64,000 bases of DNA from an uncultured bacterium (GTDB lineage: Bacteria; DYJV01), in assembly GCA_964543655.1 (NCBI GenBank), contig CAZIZE010000063.1:23020-87019 (forward strand), in the 5' to 3' direction. The position numbers were made by a program, and so were the translations under genes. The notes under the pieces are model-generated. The model made no database searches, was not told the DNA's origin, and saw only the letters and a program-made list of their open reading frames with translations. This document shows positions 33,273-39,717 of this stretch, piece after piece; the stretch's first letter is position 1; every line of letters starts with the position of its first letter.

Positions 33273-33656
33273 ATGGCACTTGATACTAAAATGAAAGTTT
33301 TGGTTGTTGATGATTTTGCAACCATGAGAAGAATAATTAAAAACATTTTGAGACAGATTGGTTTTACCAATATTATAGAAGCTGATGATGGTTCTACAGC
33401 TCTTCCTATTCTTGAAAAGGACAATATCGACCTTGTAATCACTGACTGGAATATGCCTAAAATGAGTGGATTAGAACTTCTCAAAGCCATTAGGAGTAAC
33501 CCTAATTTAAAAGATACTCCTGTGTTAATGGTAACAGCTGAAGCTTTAAAAGAGAATATAATTGAAGCTGTTAAAGCTGGAGTTAACAACTATGTTGTAA
33601 AGCCATTTACAGCACAAACTTTACAGGAAAAAATAGAGAAAATTTTTGGGAAATAA
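33273..33656 (+). CDS. CheY-like single-domain response regulator
   Basis: KVLVVDDFATMRRII...VITDWNMPKMSGLELLKAIR...PVLMVTAEA...VKPF matches all CheY conserved positions (DD, D57, T87, K109). Confidence 0.85.
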   Translation: MALDTKMKVLVVDDFATMRRIIKNILRQIGFTNIIEADDGSTALPILEKDNIDLVITDWNMPKMSGLELLKAIRSNPNLKDTPVLMVTAEALKENIIEAVKAGVNNYVVKPFTAQTLQEKIEKIFGK

Positions 33657-33659
33657 TAG

Positions 33660-34595
33660 ATGCCAAATTTATTGCAACTTTTAACAAATGAAGATGGAAA
33701 TGTTAGAAAAGCAGCCCTTCTTGGGCTTGCATATAAGGGAGAAACAACCTCATATAAAAAAATTCTTCCTCTACTTAAAGATAAATATTGGCAAATCAGG
33801 CTTGCTGCTGTTCAATGCCTTGAAATTTTAAAATGCAAGGAAGCTTTGCCATATCTGTTTAGCAGGTTAGGGATTGATGCACAATCTGGGAGAAAAGCAA
33901 TTCTTGATATATTAGCTGTTAGAAAGCCAAAACCTGAAGAAGAGGAAGATTCATCAAATGTTGAAAATTCTTTTAGAGTTAAAAAAGCAATTGCTCATGC
34001 AATTGCAACAATTGATGAAAATTACCTGATTAATCCATTAATAAATTCTTTAAGCTCTGACAATATTAATATGCAGCTTGCTGCAATTACAGGTCTTGGG
34101 AATATTGGTGCAGAATCAGCTGTACCTAAGATGTTAGAATTATTAGATACTGATAATGTATTATTGCAAAAAGCTATTATAGTTTCTCTTGGGAAAATTA
34201 AATCTTATATGGCTGTTGAACGTTTAATTGAGCTTACCGAGCATAGTGACGCTCAAATTAGGATGGAGGCTATTATTGCTCTCAATCATATTAAAGATTC
34301 AAGAGCAATAAAAATATTTATTGAGAAATTAAATGATAAAGATGTTAATGTAAGAAGGACTGCTGTTATTGCACTTGGTAATACCAAGAATCCAGAAATT
34401 TTGGATTTCCTTTTGGATAAGTTAAATGATAATAGTATTGTTGTAAGAAGAGCAGTTGTTTCTTCATTGGTAAATTACAGAGAAGAGAAGGTCCTGACCT
34501 CTCTTGTAAATCTTATGGAGCAGGAGACAGATGAAGACTTTATAAAAGAAATTTCCATGACATTTAATAAAGTTTTTGCAGGAATGTATCAGTGA
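33660..34595 (+). CDS. HEAT-repeat (PBS-lyase-type) protein
   Basis: Multiple approximately 30-aa repeats of the x-VR-xAA-xALG-xIG pattern. Confidence 0.7.
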   Translation: MPNLLQLLTNEDGNVRKAALLGLAYKGETTSYKKILPLLKDKYWQIRLAAVQCLEILKCKEALPYLFSRLGIDAQSGRKAILDILAVRKPKPEEEEDSSNVENSFRVKKAIAHAIATIDENYLINPLINSLSSDNINMQLAAITGLGNIGAESAVPKMLELLDTDNVLLQKAIIVSLGKIKSYMAVERLIELTEHSDAQIRMEAIIALNHIKDSRAIKIFIEKLNDKDVNVRRTAVIALGNTKNPEILDFLLDKLNDNSIVVRRAVVSSLVNYREEKVLTSLVNLMEQETDEDFIKEISMTFNKVFAGMYQ

Positions 34596-35398
34596 AAATA
34601 AAATGCCTAATAGCATCAACAAAAAGAAATTTTATAGATAAAATAACCAGGTTCATTAACAAAGAAAATCTTAGCCAGCTTGATATTGTAGATAAAATAG
34701 ATAGCAAAGAGATATTAAAAAAACATTATGATATTATTATAATTGATGATGATATTTGTGATGATTGGGAAAAGTTACATAAGGATATAAAAGAGACAAA
34801 TATCAACAATATTTTCATTTCAATTGTCAACAAAGTTAATATTGATAAACTTCGTCAAGCCTTTAGAGATGGTATCTATGATGTAATCCATCATAACATT
34901 AATGACAATGAAATATTGCACGTTTTTATGAAAGCTCTTGATACAGCTAAGATAATGAAATCGTGTGAAAAAGTTGTAAAATATTGTACACATAAAATTT
35001 TTTTTGAAATTCCAAGTGAAGTTAATTTAGTAAATGAGACTATTTTGCAGATATTAGAAACAGCAAAACTTGTTGGTTTTATTAAAAACACTGATTTAGA
35101 AAGTAACTTAAGACTTGTTTACACAGAAGCAATAGTTAATGCTATAGTTCATGGAAATAAATCCGATAAGAGTAAAAAGGTTATTGTTGTAGCAGAAATT
35201 ACTTATGAAAAGATGATAGTTTCCATTGAGGATATGGGAGAAGGTTTTGATTTTCAAAAGATAAATAACCCGCTTGAAGAGGATAATTTGCTCAAATCAT
35301 CAGGACGAGGCATATATTTAATAAAAGCAATTATGGATGAAGTAAAGTTTGAAAAAAATGGCAGTAAAATTATTTTAGTAAAGTATAGGGAGGGGTAA
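34592..35398 (+). CDS. Receiver-like domain fused to an HATPase_c (RsbW/SpoIIAB-type anti-sigma-factor-like serine kinase) domain
   Basis: The N-terminal half has REC-like topology but no clear phosphoacceptor context. The C-terminus (EAIVNAIVHGNKSDKSKKVIVV...IEDMGEGFD...SGRGIYLIKAIMDEV) matches the GHKL ATPase N and G boxes. Confidence 0.5.
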   Translation: MKIKCLIASTKRNFIDKITRFINKENLSQLDIVDKIDSKEILKKHYDIIIIDDDICDDWEKLHKDIKETNINNIFISIVNKVNIDKLRQAFRDGIYDVIHHNINDNEILHVFMKALDTAKIMKSCEKVVKYCTHKIFFEIPSEVNLVNETILQILETAKLVGFIKNTDLESNLRLVYTEAIVNAIVHGNKSDKSKKVIVVAEITYEKMIVSIEDMGEGFDFQKINNPLEEDNLLKSSGRGIYLIKAIMDEVKFEKNGSKIILVKYREG

Positions 35399-35418: not shown

Positions 35419-35712
35419 ATGCAGCAAATTCTCAACTACAATATAAAGGTTGAGAGAGTTTTCCACCTTTATCAGGAGCAAGGTGAGATAAATAGAAGTC
35501 TTTTATCAGAAGAGTTTGAAAAACTTCAAGAGCAAATCAAAGAAAAAGTTAACATGCCAGAAGAGACAGAAACTGATAATAAAGTTAAAGATAAAGAAGA
35601 ACATACTGCCTCTCCAAATAGCTATCAACAAAAGAAGAAAAAATCTAATGAGCCTAAAAAAGAGATAAAATATTTAAAAGAGCCTGATTCAAATATTGAT
35701 ATTAAAATTTAA
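35419..35712 (+). CDS. Hypothetical charged protein (97 aa)
   Basis: ORF with the Shine-Dalgarno-like sequence GGATAAGGAG upstream; low complexity; no recognisable domain. Confidence 0.35.
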   Translation: MQQILNYNIKVERVFHLYQEQGEINRSLLSEEFEKLQEQIKEKVNMPEETETDNKVKDKEEHTASPNSYQQKKKKSNEPKKEIKYLKEPDSNIDIKI

Positions 35713-36015: not shown

Positions 36016-36168
36016 TTTCGGGCTTAAGCCCTCAAAATGACTGTTTTGATGGCAGAGAGGAGCACTGTGTGAAAAAATTACTGTTGGGTTTTACATTTGG
36101 TTTTGGATAAGAGCACCTATAAAAAACAAAGTTGGATTTTATACTTGGCTCTGTATTGGTTATAAAAA

Positions 36169-36240
36169 GCTGGTAAGGGGAATTGAACCCCTGACATGCT
36201 GATTACGAATCAGCTGCTCTACCATCTGAGCTATACCAGC
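36169..36240 (-). tRNA. tRNA-Thr (anticodon CGU)
   Basis: Reverse complement GCTGGTATAGCTCAGATGGTAGAGCAGCTGATTCGTAATCAGCATGTCAGGGGTTCAATTCCCCTTACCAGC folds as a cloverleaf (7-bp acceptor, GCTC/GAGC D stem, anticodon loop TTCGTAA, GGTTCAATT T-loop); CCA is not encoded. Confidence 0.85.
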
Positions 36241-36245
36241 AGATT

Positions 36246-38339
36246 TTAATTTCCCATTATTTCATTATAAGCTTTTATTAGCATTTCTCTGTAATATTCT
36301 ATATCATAAGAATCAGCAATTTGTCTAATTTTTACTCGCTCTTCTGAGACTTTGCTTCTATTATCTGTAATTACATATTCTACACTTTCGCCAGGTTGTA
36401 TATTGGTGAGAGAAGATGCAGCAATTATATTTAGATTTTTATTTTTATATGAAGATATAGGTTTTGAAACTCTTTTTTTTATTACCAGTTCATCAATATT
36501 GACCTCTCCATTTTGTAACAGTAGAAGATATTCTTTTAAAATTTTATTAGCGCGTTTATAATCTGGGAAAATTTTTAACAATTTTTGCTGAAAATTTTTT
36601 ATAAATATAGGGGTGTCCCTTTTTCTAAGCATCAGTCCTCTTACCTTTATTTTGCCATTATCAAATATGCCAAAAAATTTATTCATAACCTGTTTATTTT
36701 TATTCTCTGCTGAAGGAAGAAATTTAATGAATTGATAAATCCCTTCTATGTTGAGGATAAAACCAGTTTTAGTTGATATTTCTTTTGCAATATTTGTATA
36801 TTCTTCTCTTGTGGCATTTTTTTTATATATGTAGAGAGAGTCAGTTACTGCATAAATAATTTTAAACCCACTATTTTCAGCTATTTCTTTTGCTTTTAGT
36901 AGAATATCTCTGCCAGCAGCAGTTGTTGCTTCATGAGCTTCTACACATCCAAATTTTGCATTTTTATATCCTAAATAACCAAAGCAAGTAACGAGCATCC
37001 ATTTTATAGCATTCTGTCTATTTTTAAAAACTTCACTTGCTTTAAAATTTTTGTAAAGCTTTCTTTTTTTTAATAAAGGAGATATTGTCTCCGGGATAAT
37101 ACCTTGTTTTTTCTGACAAAAATAGTAATTAGTGCCAGGTATTTTAAGCTTTTCTGAAATATGCTGGCAACATTTGCAGTTTAATGTTTCAACTGATATG
37201 TTGAATTTTTCAATTATTGATGGATACATTGAAAAAAAGTCAACTTCTGCTACATTCTTGAAAATACCTACAGGTGGCAGGAAAAATAGACCACCTTTGT
37301 CAACTTTTATAAAATCTATTGCCCTTTTGAACCTTTCTGGAAAGGCTTTGTGTGAAGGAATAAGGTAATTATTTTTATAAGCTGTTTTTAGCTCCATTGT
37401 GGATATTGAGGAGCCAGGAGAAATTCTCGCAGCTTCTTGCAAAGGAAGTGAAGTGAGCCGTGCCACTTCTATTAACCCGTCAATTCCAGAATTTTTTACA
37501 AAAAAAGAATTATTAATGTCTATATGAATTCTACCTTTAAGATAGCTTATACTATCTTTAAATACTACTTTACCGTATGAAAAAAAGGAGTAAGATTTTT
37601 TTGATACAATTTTCAGATTATCTGTAGGTCTTGAGAGGGGTATATCTATGTTATATTTTTGGGCTCCAAACTTTATTAGGGGAATAATTACAGGATCTCC
37701 TGATAATGTAATAACCATATCAGGATCATATTCTTTAAAAATATTTCCAATGGAAATAAAAAATTCTTCTGTATCAAATTTTTCAAAAAAAAGTTTCTCT
37801 CCATTGGGCATGGTAATATCAATACCTGTCCATTGTGAATACTTTGGATTGCCCTTGCACACAGGGAATATGCCTAAAATGTTTAAAGGTGGTAATTTGT
37901 AATTTATATCCATGGGATTGTCTAAAGATTTAATAGAGATAATATGGTTGTTATTATGTGTTACTTCAACTTTTGCAAATGGAAAAAGATTGTGCTCAAA
38001 GTAAAATTGCAACAGAGGTGAAAGGTCAGAGTTGTAGACTCCTATATTTTCCTGGTTAAGAAGATAAGCTTTTACATTCCAGAAATTTTTAATATCCATT
38101 TTTATACCATAAACTTTTACCTTTTTTCCTGTGTAAATTTCTCCCATTTCTGTAGAGTAAAATGAAATTTTAAAAAATTTAGATAAATTTTTAATAAATT
38201 TATATGATGATTTAACATAAAGTGTAGGAGTGTAATTAAAGTATAGAAAAGATTTGCTTGCTTCATTATTAACTAAACATAGGAGCAATTTATTGTTATC
38301 AATAAAAGTATCAAGGAGAAAAAGTTCATTCTTTTTCAT
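36246..38339 (-). CDS. Family B DNA polymerase (Pol II / archaeal PolB-like) lacking the 3'-5' exonuclease catalytic motifs
   Basis: Motif A DFFSMYPSII, motif B KWMLVTCFGYLGY, motif C IYAVTDSLYI (YxDTDS), KxY-region NKFFGIFDNGKIKVRGL, plus PolB-typical GRIHIDI and GIIPETISPLLKKRKLYK. Exo I (DxE) and Exo II (NxxxFDxxY) positions are replaced (LLDTF; ITLSGDPVIIPLI). Confidence 0.8.
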   Translation of the reverse strand: MKKNELFLLDTFIDNNKLLLCLVNNEASKSFLYFNYTPTLYVKSSYKFIKNLSKFFKISFYSTEMGEIYTGKKVKVYGIKMDIKNFWNVKAYLLNQENIGVYNSDLSPLLQFYFEHNLFPFAKVEVTHNNNHIISIKSLDNPMDINYKLPPLNILGIFPVCKGNPKYSQWTGIDITMPNGEKLFFEKFDTEEFFISIGNIFKEYDPDMVITLSGDPVIIPLIKFGAQKYNIDIPLSRPTDNLKIVSKKSYSFFSYGKVVFKDSISYLKGRIHIDINNSFFVKNSGIDGLIEVARLTSLPLQEAARISPGSSISTMELKTAYKNNYLIPSHKAFPERFKRAIDFIKVDKGGLFFLPPVGIFKNVAEVDFFSMYPSIIEKFNISVETLNCKCCQHISEKLKIPGTNYYFCQKKQGIIPETISPLLKKRKLYKNFKASEVFKNRQNAIKWMLVTCFGYLGYKNAKFGCVEAHEATTAAGRDILLKAKEIAENSGFKIIYAVTDSLYIYKKNATREEYTNIAKEISTKTGFILNIEGIYQFIKFLPSAENKNKQVMNKFFGIFDNGKIKVRGLMLRKRDTPIFIKNFQQKLLKIFPDYKRANKILKEYLLLLQNGEVNIDELVIKKRVSKPISSYKNKNLNIIAASSLTNIQPGESVEYVITDNRSKVSEERVKIRQIADSYDIEYYREMLIKAYNEIMGN

Positions 38340-38565
38340 GTAGCGTTCTGATTTCTTTTAAAAGCTCTATGCACATTGATAACAATATACCTTCCATTGG
38401 CAGGGGGAAAGAGGAATAAGCGCATGCTTGAATATGTTTTCTTGCTTTTTCCCATAATTCATCAAATATCTCTTGATCCTCTTTTCGAAGTGCGCGTCTA
38501 AAATCTTTGAGATTGCTTTTTTCTCTGTTTAATACGTATGTAAAAGGTGCAACTGTCCTGCCCAT
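38326..38565 (-). CDS. Hypothetical small protein (79 aa) within the lexA-polB operon
   Basis: ORF overlapping both neighbours (14 nt with polB, 37 nt with the RecA-fold gene); no recognisable domain. Confidence 0.35.
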   Translation of the reverse strand: MGRTVAPFTYVLNREKSNLKDFRRALRKEDQEIFDELWEKARKHIQACAYSSFPLPMEGILLSMCIELLKEIRTLHEKE

Positions 38566-39068
38566 AGCTTATTAACCCCTTTTTTTAGATGAAGTGGCTT
38601 TACAATAGATGTATCTTCTATAAATACTTTGCTCTTCTTTTCCACTATTTTATAGTATCCTCTTCTATCAAATCTATTTAAAGTTATAATAGCAGGTGAT
38701 ATGTGAGATAGATAAGATAGAGATTTTCTAAAAATTTTCATTGCATGTATATGAGAAATATTGTCATCATCAAGCAGGGTAGTAAAACCCAGTAGTATAA
38801 ATAGAAAATTTTTACCTGTTTTTTTGAAAAAGAGAATTTTCTCTATAAGTTTTAACATTTGAAATGGTGTGAAAGCTCGGGCAATAAATATATTTTCAAG
38901 AATGGTGTATGGTGTAATTTTCATTGCTACACAGATATTTGATATAAGGTATGGGTCAAATTTGTTTGCAGCATCAACAACAATGATATTGGAATTATCT
39001 CTGAAAATAGCCCTGATATAGTACCAGATAAATTTGTGAATCCCTGAATTACCAGCAACTGCAATCAT
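38529..39068 (-). CDS. RecA-fold protein with a degenerate Walker A (ImuA/SulA-like)
   Basis: IAVAGNSGIHKF (degenerate P-loop) then IIVVDAANKFDPYLISNICVAMKI, which aligns to RecA [21 protein letters not shown]. A later hydrophobic strand ends in DDD (FLFILLGFTTLLDDD), like RecA VIVVDSV. 179 aa, similar in size to SulA or ImuA. Confidence 0.5.
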   Translation of the reverse strand: MIAVAGNSGIHKFIWYYIRAIFRDNSNIIVVDAANKFDPYLISNICVAMKITPYTILENIFIARAFTPFQMLKLIEKILFFKKTGKNFLFILLGFTTLLDDDNISHIHAMKIFRKSLSYLSHISPAIITLNRFDRRGYYKIVEKKSKVFIEDTSIVKPLHLKKGVNKLWAGQLHLLHTY

Positions 39069-39682
39069 GATATTTTCCTTATTATCCCAACAACTTTACC
39101 TATTATTTTAACTTCATCAGGATTGATATTGTTAAGGATAATATCTTCATATTTATCATTTTCAGGATGAAGAATGATAAGGTTGTCCTTTTTTATAAAT
39201 CTCTTTAAAGTAATTTCATTGTAAATAGATGCAACAACAATGTCGTTATGCTCAACATTAGAATCAGTTGATACCACAGCAATATCTCCATCTTCAATAA
39301 GAGCATTTATCATTGAATCACCAATAACTTTAAACATAAAAATATTAGAAAATGGAAAAATTTTAGTATCAACAATGTAGTAATCTTCTGCAACTTCGTT
39401 AATATCAATTGGTGAACCAGCAGCTACATAAGATATAAGAGGAGCTTTTTTTATATTACTGGCTGGCTCTTCAATAGAAAGAGATATACCTCTGGAGATT
39501 TTTTTCTCTTTTTTTAAATATCCCTTTTTTTCTAAAATAGTAACATATTTGAAAGCATTTTTAGGTGCAATGCGAAAATGTTCAGCTATCTCTCTAATGG
39601 TAGGGGGCAGCCCCCTGTTATGTAAAAAATCTTTAATAAATAGATAGACTTCTTTTTCTTTTAATGTAATATTGGGTAACAT
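39065..39682 (-). CDS. lexA: LexA repressor
   Basis: N-terminal wHTH (LKEKEVYLFIKDFLHNRGLPPTIREIAEHFRIAPKNAFKYVTILEKKGYL), Ala-Gly cleavage site VAAGSP, catalytic Ser in VIGDSM and Lys in ITLKRF. Confidence 0.9.
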   Translation of the reverse strand: MLPNITLKEKEVYLFIKDFLHNRGLPPTIREIAEHFRIAPKNAFKYVTILEKKGYLKKEKKISRGISLSIEEPASNIKKAPLISYVAAGSPIDINEVAEDYYIVDTKIFPFSNIFMFKVIGDSMINALIEDGDIAVVSTDSNVEHNDIVVASIYNEITLKRFIKKDNLIILHPENDKYEDIILNNINPDEVKIIGKVVGIIRKIS

Positions 39683-39717
39683 ATGTTACCTATAGTTGAA
39701 AAAAATATTTTTGTCAA
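39675..39717 (-). promoter_or_regulatory. Candidate lexA promoter/operator: imperfect 22-bp inverted repeat TTGACAAAAAT|ATTTTTTTCAA containing a consensus -35 TTGACA, plus a perfect 16-bp palindrome GGTAACATATGTTACC spanning the lexA start codon
   Basis: In lexA sense: TTGACA-N17-TATAGG then AGGTAACAT-ATG. The 22-bp inverted repeat at 39696-39717 matches at 10 of 11 positions per arm. Confidence 0.4.

Follow-up and report, generated by a model that had tools for sequence, protein, structure and literature searches.

We analyzed a 64,000-nucleotide (nt) stretch of DNA from an uncultured bacterium (GenBank assembly GCA_964543655.1, contig CAZIZE010000063.1, positions 23,020 to 87,019 of the forward strand), referred to here as the window, and examined in it a gene encoding a family-B DNA polymerase, PolB2, whose exonuclease domain is decayed. 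Four genes run on the minus strand from 39682 down to 36246 in the order lexA-iRadA-PPB2-polB2, the polymerase gene coming last. Lengths are in amino acids (aa).

39065..39682, minus strand: lexA, 205 aa, helix-turn-helix and S24 peptidase domain (TIGR00498 with an E value of 5.7e-50, above the curated cut-off; PF01726 and PF00717)
38529..39068, minus strand: iRadA, 179 aa, RadA/Rad51 ATPase core without the N-terminal domain (weak single-sequence RadA matches, E value of 5e-5)
38326..38565, minus strand: PPB2, 79 aa (arCOG07300 / DUF8156), starting with MGRTVAPFTYVL (precomputed PF26485, MGRT N terminus, and synteny)
36246..38339, minus strand: polB2, 697 aa, family-B DNA polymerase, exonuclease domain decayed (profile, PDB, structure model, and homologue columns)

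A Pfam scan of PolB2 returned PF00136 (DNA_pol_B) over residues 312-690 with an E value of 4e-32. The top NCBIfam model was PRK05761.1-2 (NF004416), an archaeal-type "type B DNA-directed DNA polymerase," which matched residues 45-694 with an E value of 4e-109 and a score under the curated cut-off, while the models for Escherichia coli Pol II reached 1.6e-28 (NF004421) or weaker. Searching the PDB by sequence gave the PolB enzymes of Pyrococcus and Thermococcus as best hits (2e-44), with Pol II at 3e-12. The AlphaFold2 model, for which an alignment of 35 sequences served as input, has a mean predicted local distance difference test score (pLDDT) of 91.8 and a predicted template modeling score (pTM) of 0.90. 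Foldseek superposes it over its full length on the PolB structures of 9°N, KOD, and Pyrococcus abyssi (E value of ~1e-41, template modeling score [TM] of 0.75), and the family-B layout is complete, with N-terminal, exonuclease-like, palm, fingers, and thumb domains. Given the profile, PDB, and full-length model matches, the gene is therefore real and encodes a complete family-B polymerase.

Homologues of this polymerase are abundant: 1,696 of the candidates scored had E values of <1e-5, and a scan of GTDB species representatives found matches in Acidobacteriota, Ignavibacteriota, Chloroflexota, Nitrospirota, Thermodesulfobacteriota, and other phyla. The window PolB2 and a homologue from Abyssubacteria (P0018) share the motif string of RJP21303.1, and the motif B-C stretch of the window protein is identical to that of RJP21303.1 at 42 of 61 positions. 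Among the supplement entries listed by Timinskas et al. in 2025 (PMC11791011), RJP21303.1 is a PolB2 of group 1a, encoded in a LexA-iRadA-PPB2-PolB2 operon. The gene context of lexA, iRadA, and PPB2, which an initial annotation of the polymerase gene had not included, speaks decisively for PolB2. Judging from these sequence comparisons, the window protein is very probably a bacterial PolB2 (G2) and as such a member of an SOS-linked translesion cassette, a family that has already been described.

The three genes upstream carry the features expected of PolB2 partners. LexA has the A88-G89 cleavage site together with S123 and K160. For iRadA, a family profile built from 28 members matches the ATPase core of Pyrococcus furiosus RadA with an E value of 7e-11; its P-loop is degenerate (G6NSGIHKF13, in which G6 alone is conserved across the family), and Gly stands in place of the Walker B Asp (I91LLGF95). 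Judged by these residues, iRadA is a truncated, ATPase-dead RadA homologue. PPB2 had no match in the Pfam scan of the window proteins, and its identity therefore rests on the precomputed PF26485 assignment, on synteny, and on the MGRT N terminus, which is a signature of the PPB2 family (PMC11791011). By analogy with the description of that family, the protein is predicted to be helical.

All four genes overlap: lexA and iRadA by 4 nt (ATGA, the lexA stop over the iRadA start), iRadA and PPB2 by 37 nt, and PPB2 and polB2 by 14 nt. Within 38529-38565 (minus strand), the last 12 codons of iRadA (LWAGQLHLLHTY and the stop) share their bases, in another frame, with the first 12 codons of PPB2 (MGRTVAPFTYVL). 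The iRadA C terminus, Q172LHLL, resembles the β-clamp-binding motif QLxLF and reads QLHHLL and QLHLLL in the two closest relatives; going by its sequence, this tail could be functional or a by-product of the conserved MGRT arm.

Synteny was counted at those 62 related GTDB loci where the sequence upstream of PolB2 extends for at least 2.5 kb. A PPB2 homologue lies directly upstream of PolB2 at 59 of the 62 (58 of these with MGRT), and iRadA is found upstream at 56/62, as is the order iRadA-PPB2-PolB2; lexA is upstream on the same strand at 20 of the loci. The three closest relatives (GCA_054035995.1, GCA_027036465.1, and one ENA contig), whose PolB proteins are 54 to 56% identical to that of the window, retain all four genes, the 37-nt iRadA/PPB2 overlap, and a palindrome over the lexA ATG that is treated below.

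The exonuclease-like domain of PolB2 has two blocks that can be located against exonucleolytic family-B polymerases.

37857..37880, minus strand: Exo I-equivalent β-strand, residues 154-161 (ILGIFPVC), without DxE (strand in the AlphaFold2 model; no conserved acidic column in the family)
37674..37727, minus strand: Exo II-equivalent block, residues 205-222 (DPDMVITLSGDPVIIPLI), with the catalytic Asp replaced by I218 (HMMER alignment to 4flt and column counts)

The initial annotation had described a polymerase with no Exo I, Exo II, or Exo III signature, and this holds, with the exonuclease catalytic residues absent at all three sites. Its view of Exo I was right about the absence and wrong about the place: it had put the motif at LLDTF, which is residues 8-12 and forms the first strand of the N-terminal domain, where D10 is at least 90% conserved within "WLFDxYP". 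The register of the Exo I-equivalent strand against D141 and E143 of the P. furiosus (Pfu) enzyme is approximate. Residues 150-166 (PPLNILGIFPVCKGNPK) contain zero Asp and zero Glu, and therefore no register shift could restore DxE. A Glu near this strand in some family members, in "LRLEG," was considered as a remnant of Exo I and rejected; the window protein has none.

For Exo II, HMMER aligns residues 192-243 with the corresponding region of P. abyssi and P. furiosus PolB. The segment DMVITLSGDPVIIPLI (residues 207-222) pairs with P. abyssi DVIITYNGDNF(D)FPYL, which sets S213 against the Asn, V217 against the Phe, and I218 against the catalytic Asp. In alignment columns over 120 PolB2 homologues sharing ~35% identity, position 218 is Leu in 85, Ile in 33, Val in 1, and Phe in 1 and is never acidic, so that the alignment and the counts bear out the loss of the motif. 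At the Exo III site, the 16 residues between GRIHID (269-274) and EVARL (291-295) include no Tyr. The P. abyssi counterpart of this segment is ~45 residues longer and could be aligned with HMMER neither by single sequence nor by family profile, and in the PolB2 model residues 279-296 form a single unbroken helix. The short, Tyr-free segment bears out the reported lack of a YxxxD motif. E291 and D287 were weighed as remnants of Exo III and rejected, as E291 pairs with the Gln in the "QLARL" of P. abyssi, which lies downstream of Exo III. The alignments and the model show no intact DxE, FDxxY, or YxxxD. The loss of the exonuclease residues is family-wide.

In the polymerase domain, five elements stand out.

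37215..37247, minus strand: motif A, residues 365-375 (EVDFFSMYPSI), canonical, with the metal ligand D367 (in 120/120 homologues)
36966..37004, minus strand: motif B, residues 446-458 (KWMLVTCFGYLGY), K446 kept and NSxY replaced by VTCF (K446 in 120/120 homologues)
36837..36854, minus strand: motif C, residues 496-501 (YAVTDS), first Asp replaced by V498, second Asp being D500 (D500 in 120/120 homologues; position 498 never Asp)
37290..37331, minus strand: FxxA-like F337-K-R-A340 followed by D347-K-G-G350 at the canonical YxGG position, the predicted loop for iRadA and the PPB2 arm (role from PMC11791011)
37116..37178, minus strand: cysteine cluster C388-x-C390-C391...C408 (in 118 to 120 of 120 homologues)

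The earlier statement that all polymerase motifs are present applies fully to motif A, which is canonical, but motifs B, C, and KxY deviate. Motif B reads KWMLVTCFG against the canonical KxxxNSxYG, with the Lys and the Gly retained, and KxY is NKF (553-555). Motif C had been read correctly as VTDS with the second catalytic Asp kept. Seven residues, D367, K446, D500, D347, K565, R567, and D575, are present in every one of the 120 homologues, and the strict conservation of the two metal-binding Asp residues and of the motif B Lys argues for a working active site. What had been called a YxGG-like region does exist, but it is the PolB2-specific D347-K-G-G. Around it, E335, K338, D347, G349, and G350 do not vary, and A340 is conserved to at least 90%; in the monomer model the 337-350 loop has a pLDDT of 57 to 64. 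Published family models have the conserved D(K/R) motif contacting the "MGRT" arm of PPB2 and the preceding loop binding iRadA in the manner of the Rad51 oligomerization motif (PMC11791011).

Two residues of the cysteine cluster, C391 and C408, have a Cys pair as their aligned counterparts in P. abyssi PolB, and C388 and C390 are additional. The cluster could be a metal site or form disulfides. Neither the term "cysteine" nor the term "zinc" occurs in PMC11791011.

The window PolB2 belongs to a compact, low-GC (guanine plus cytosine) subgroup of 673 to 700 aa without a C-terminal tail, ~35 to 38% identical to the typical members of ~720 to 790 aa. Many longer homologues have C-terminal tails with Q-x-x-LPLF or QxxLF-like strings, such as KSQELPLFQIQI and SQTSLPLFTHE, which look like β-clamp motifs. 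In one homologue (P0115, 888 aa, on a 48-kb ENA contig), a C-terminal TIR domain (PF01582/PF13676) occupies alignment columns ~760-924; it is unusual for a translesion-type polymerase to be fused to such a typical immune-signaling domain.

Upstream of the four genes, a candidate regulatory region overlaps the start of lexA.

39712..39717, minus strand: TTGACA, -35-like hexamer of the putative operon promoter, with 17 nt between it and TATAGG (read by eye)
39689..39694, minus strand: TATAGG, putative -10-like hexamer, abutting and overlapping the palindrome
39675..39690, no strand assigned: perfect 16-bp palindrome GGTAACATATGTTACC, candidate LexA operator, covering the lexA ATG at 39680-39682 (sequence reading and motif search)

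The palindrome is the sole exact GTAAC-N4-GTTAC in the 64-kb window, and it resembles the Gram-positive CGAAC-N4-GTTCG box. Two relatives (L083 and L084) carry GGGTAAC-AAAT-GTTACCC at the same place, over the lexA ATG, and the arrangement TTGACA-17-TATAGG/TATATG recurs in both. Read by eye and conserved in these relatives, TTGACA-17-TATAGG would be the operon promoter. Because the -10-like hexamer and the palindrome abut the ATG and leave no room for a Shine-Dalgarno sequence (39675-39717, minus strand), lexA may be translated from a leaderless mRNA, and this arrangement too is conserved in L083 and L084. Further boxes of the form GTAAC-N4-GTTAC or TAAC-N4-GTTA in the 64-kb window are limited to chance-level extras at 1708 and 62436, and therefore no wider SOS regulon can be read from the window.

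The family to which this cassette belongs has been known for some time. Makarova et al. in 2014 linked PolB2 with arCOG07300 and an inactivated RadA and noted that some bacteria have lexA in the same operon, the four-gene locus of Leptospirillum being their example (PMC4104785). Timinskas et al. renamed the partners PPB2 and iRadA and reported that iRadA-PPB2-PolB2 is the only order in bacteria and that lexA is enriched nearby; that PolB2's exonuclease domain is decayed and without an active site; that most members substitute the first Asp of DxD; and that a clamp-binding motif is found on either iRadA or PolB2 and rarely on both (PMC11791011). Each sequence feature of that study is found in the window, including the FxxA-like F337-K-R-A340 before D347-K. 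Feng et al. in 2022 showed Sulfolobus Dpo2 to be a robust polymerase devoid of 3'-5' exonuclease, which inserts poorly opposite lesions and efficiently extends mismatched or lesion-opposed termini, and they remarked that the ExoII and PolC substitutions are common to Dpo2 and the bacterial G2 clade (PMC8764526). A survey from 2026 found the DnaQ-like domain inactivated in all G2/PolB2 enzymes (PMC12926913).

The window cassette is most like the bacterial PolB2 (G2) operon, with which it shares gene order and orientation, the decayed exonuclease, the x-x-D form of motif C, the D(K/R)GG element, the MGRT arm, an ATPase-dead RadA core without the N-terminal domain, an adjacent lexA, and a possible β-clamp motif on iRadA and not on PolB2. 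It differs from the typical operon of this kind in that its subgroup is compact and tail-less and in that all four genes overlap. Deferribacterota, the phylum that its host resembles (see below), was not found among the hosts in the PMC11791011 supplement entries listed.

By description, the Dpo2 enzymes of S. islandicus and S. solfataricus have the same family-B fold, no exonuclease residues, and co-encoded iRadA and PPB2. The first Asp of motif C is substituted in both cases, as IID in Dpo2 and as VTD in the window PolB2. Dpo2 is damage inducible, as the window cassette would be. Regulation in the archaea is through Orc1-2/Cdc6 and the clamp motif is of the PCNA type, whereas the window has LexA and a putative β-clamp-type motif; Dpo2 has been characterized by experiment, whereas the window PolB2 is known from sequence. 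E. coli Pol II (PolB/DinA) is likewise a LexA-regulated family-B polymerase for damage tolerance, but it is a single subunit with an active DEDDy exonuclease and a canonical DTD; the window PolB2 has neither motif, and the similarity between the two is very weak (E value of 3e-12). E. coli Pol V (UmuD'2C-RecA) and ImuA-ImuB-DnaE2 resemble the cassette as SOS multisubunit mutasomes with a RecA/Rad51-fold accessory, often in a lexA operon. Their catalytic subunits, however, are of family Y (UmuC) or family C, not family B, and their accessories are not PPB2 homologues.

Taken together with this literature, the cassette is in all likelihood a LexA-controlled mutasome, the bacterial counterpart of the PolB2 (Dpo2) mutasome of archaea. 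In the undamaged cell, LexA would sit on GGTAACATATGTTACC, over the -10 element and the lexA start, and repress the whole operon including lexA itself, as the position and conservation of the palindrome suggest. Upon DNA damage, RecA on single-stranded DNA would trigger self-cleavage of LexA at A88-G89 through S123 and K160, residues that are present. The four overlapping genes would then be cotranscribed, and their translation would presumably be coupled through the overlaps that we observe. PolB2 would assemble with one ATPase-dead iRadA and a PPB2 trimer, as in published AlphaFold models of the family, the motifs for which are present here; iRadA would be held by the FxxA-like loop at 337-340, and the MGRT arm of PPB2 would contact D347-K. 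The complex would synthesize DNA through D367 and D500 without proofreading and, by analogy with Dpo2, would mainly extend mismatched or lesion-opposed ends left by another polymerase. The outcome would be error-prone damage tolerance. An active, non-proofreading polymerase with a translesion role had been proposed in the initial annotation, and the invariant D367, D500, and K446, the operon, and the Dpo2 precedent support it by analogy. From the literature on Dpo2, the role may be refined to that of an extender within a multisubunit mutasome rather than a stand-alone lesion inserter.

Several points weigh against this reading. VTCF in place of NSxY and the Tyr-to-Phe change in KxY affect positions through which canonical PolBs bind deoxynucleoside triphosphates and the primer, and the kinetics of PolB2 could differ substantially given these changes. 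The published enzymology that we found concerns archaeal Dpo2, and assays of bacterial PolB2 were not among it. What is said of activity, fidelity, and the role as extender is thus extrapolated from Sulfolobus enzymes that share only family-level motifs with the window protein, and the PolB2:iRadA:PPB2 stoichiometry of 1:1:3 and the contacts within the complex are predictions of published AlphaFold-Multimer models. On the regulatory side, a consensus promoter scan did not call TTGACA-17-TATAGG, whose second hexamer lacks the T at position 6; the scan called 26 sites, no more than in shuffled sequences. The palindrome is a candidate for LexA binding through its position and conservation.

The same substitutions raise the alternative of a catalytically dead pseudo-polymerase that serves only as a structural or regulatory scaffold, for instance when replication starts or where forks have stalled. 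In its favor, motif C has lost its first Asp, motif B deviates, and the exonuclease site has disappeared, and a noncatalytic role of this kind, as originally predicted for PolB2, was the published view between 2008 and 2014 (PMC4104785). The invariance of D367, D500, K446, K565, R567, and D575 at ~35% identity is nevertheless hard to explain without catalysis, and the natively expressed Dpo2 enzymes of S. islandicus and S. solfataricus proved to be robust polymerases (PMC8764526). We consider a dead scaffold improbable and retain the reading as a working mutasome.

Bacterial family-B polymerases are often carried by mobile elements, and the PolB2 cassette is thought to have reached bacteria by horizontal transfer (PMC11791011), which brings up a replicative or self-priming polymerase of a casposon, pipolin, or prophage-like element. 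The surroundings speak against it. The cassette lies among ordinary chromosomal housekeeping genes (typA, secA, mnmA, guaA, fliD, and a gene for an M23 peptidase), its GC content is not distinct from that of the flanks on a contig of ~30% GC, and the flanking genes scanned include none for an integrase, Cas1, or a terminal protein. The genes conserved alongside polB2 are lexA, iRadA, and PPB2, and polymerases of mobile elements normally keep an active exonuclease. A mobile-element polymerase is accordingly very unlikely. Least probable of all is orthology to E. coli Pol II (polB/dinA), with proofreading simply lost in this lineage. Pol II is also a LexA-regulated family-B polymerase, and Foldseek does find it (TM of 0.75), but the archaeal PolB and NF004416 matches are far stronger (2e-44 against 3e-12 in the PDB; 4e-109 against 1.6e-28 for NF004421), the exonuclease loss is not lineage specific, and neither iRadA nor PPB2 is known to us as a partner of Pol II.

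The neighboring TypA protein is 78 to 79% identical to that of Calditerrivibrio and 74% identical to that of Flexistipes, and several of its matches are labeled Deferribacterales or Deferribacteres. Going by this single marker and the GC content, the host lineage is probably Deferribacterota-like. The contig has an identical counterpart in ENA, ERZ27262694 k141_494872. On the downstream side, a tRNA-Thr(CGU) gene at 36168-36240 (minus strand) begins 5 nt past the polB2 stop on the same strand; it could be transcribed as part of the SOS operon or from a promoter of its own. Across the polB2 stop, on the opposite strand, lies a small signaling cluster followed by a further open reading frame.

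Within 33273-35398, plus strand: stand-alone receiver domain protein (127 aa), HEAT-repeat protein (311 aa), and a 268-aa protein with a C-terminal HATPase_c_2 domain (anti-sigma/RsbW-like)
35419-35712, after the signaling cluster: Lys/Glu-rich open reading frame, 97 aa, no family match

The cassette is a rediscovery of the known PolB2/G2 family, which has been described since 2014 and was modeled in detail in 2025. What may be new is how compact the cassette is, with a tail-less PolB2 and all four genes overlapping, as well as the putative operator and the dual-coded iRadA tail and PPB2 arm; the dual coding of the iRadA QLHLL and the CxCC...C cluster were not found in the text of the published PolB2 literature examined. 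It is conceivable, though rather doubtful, that the compact Deferribacterota-type cassette is a distinct variant of the PolB2 mutasome, in which the polymerase tail was lost, clamp recruitment moved to the iRadA QLHLL that is dual coded with the MGRT arm, and the CxCC...C cluster might bind a metal.

For the family, the finding means that a low-GC, Deferribacterota-like lineage has the cassette, unusually compact and with all its genes overlapping, and it supplies a candidate LexA operator, GGTAAC-N4-GTTACC, for that host lineage. Because the literature examined reports enzymology only for archaeal Dpo2, the small, tail-less PolB2 could be a convenient candidate for the first biochemistry of an SOS-controlled family-B mutasome in bacteria.

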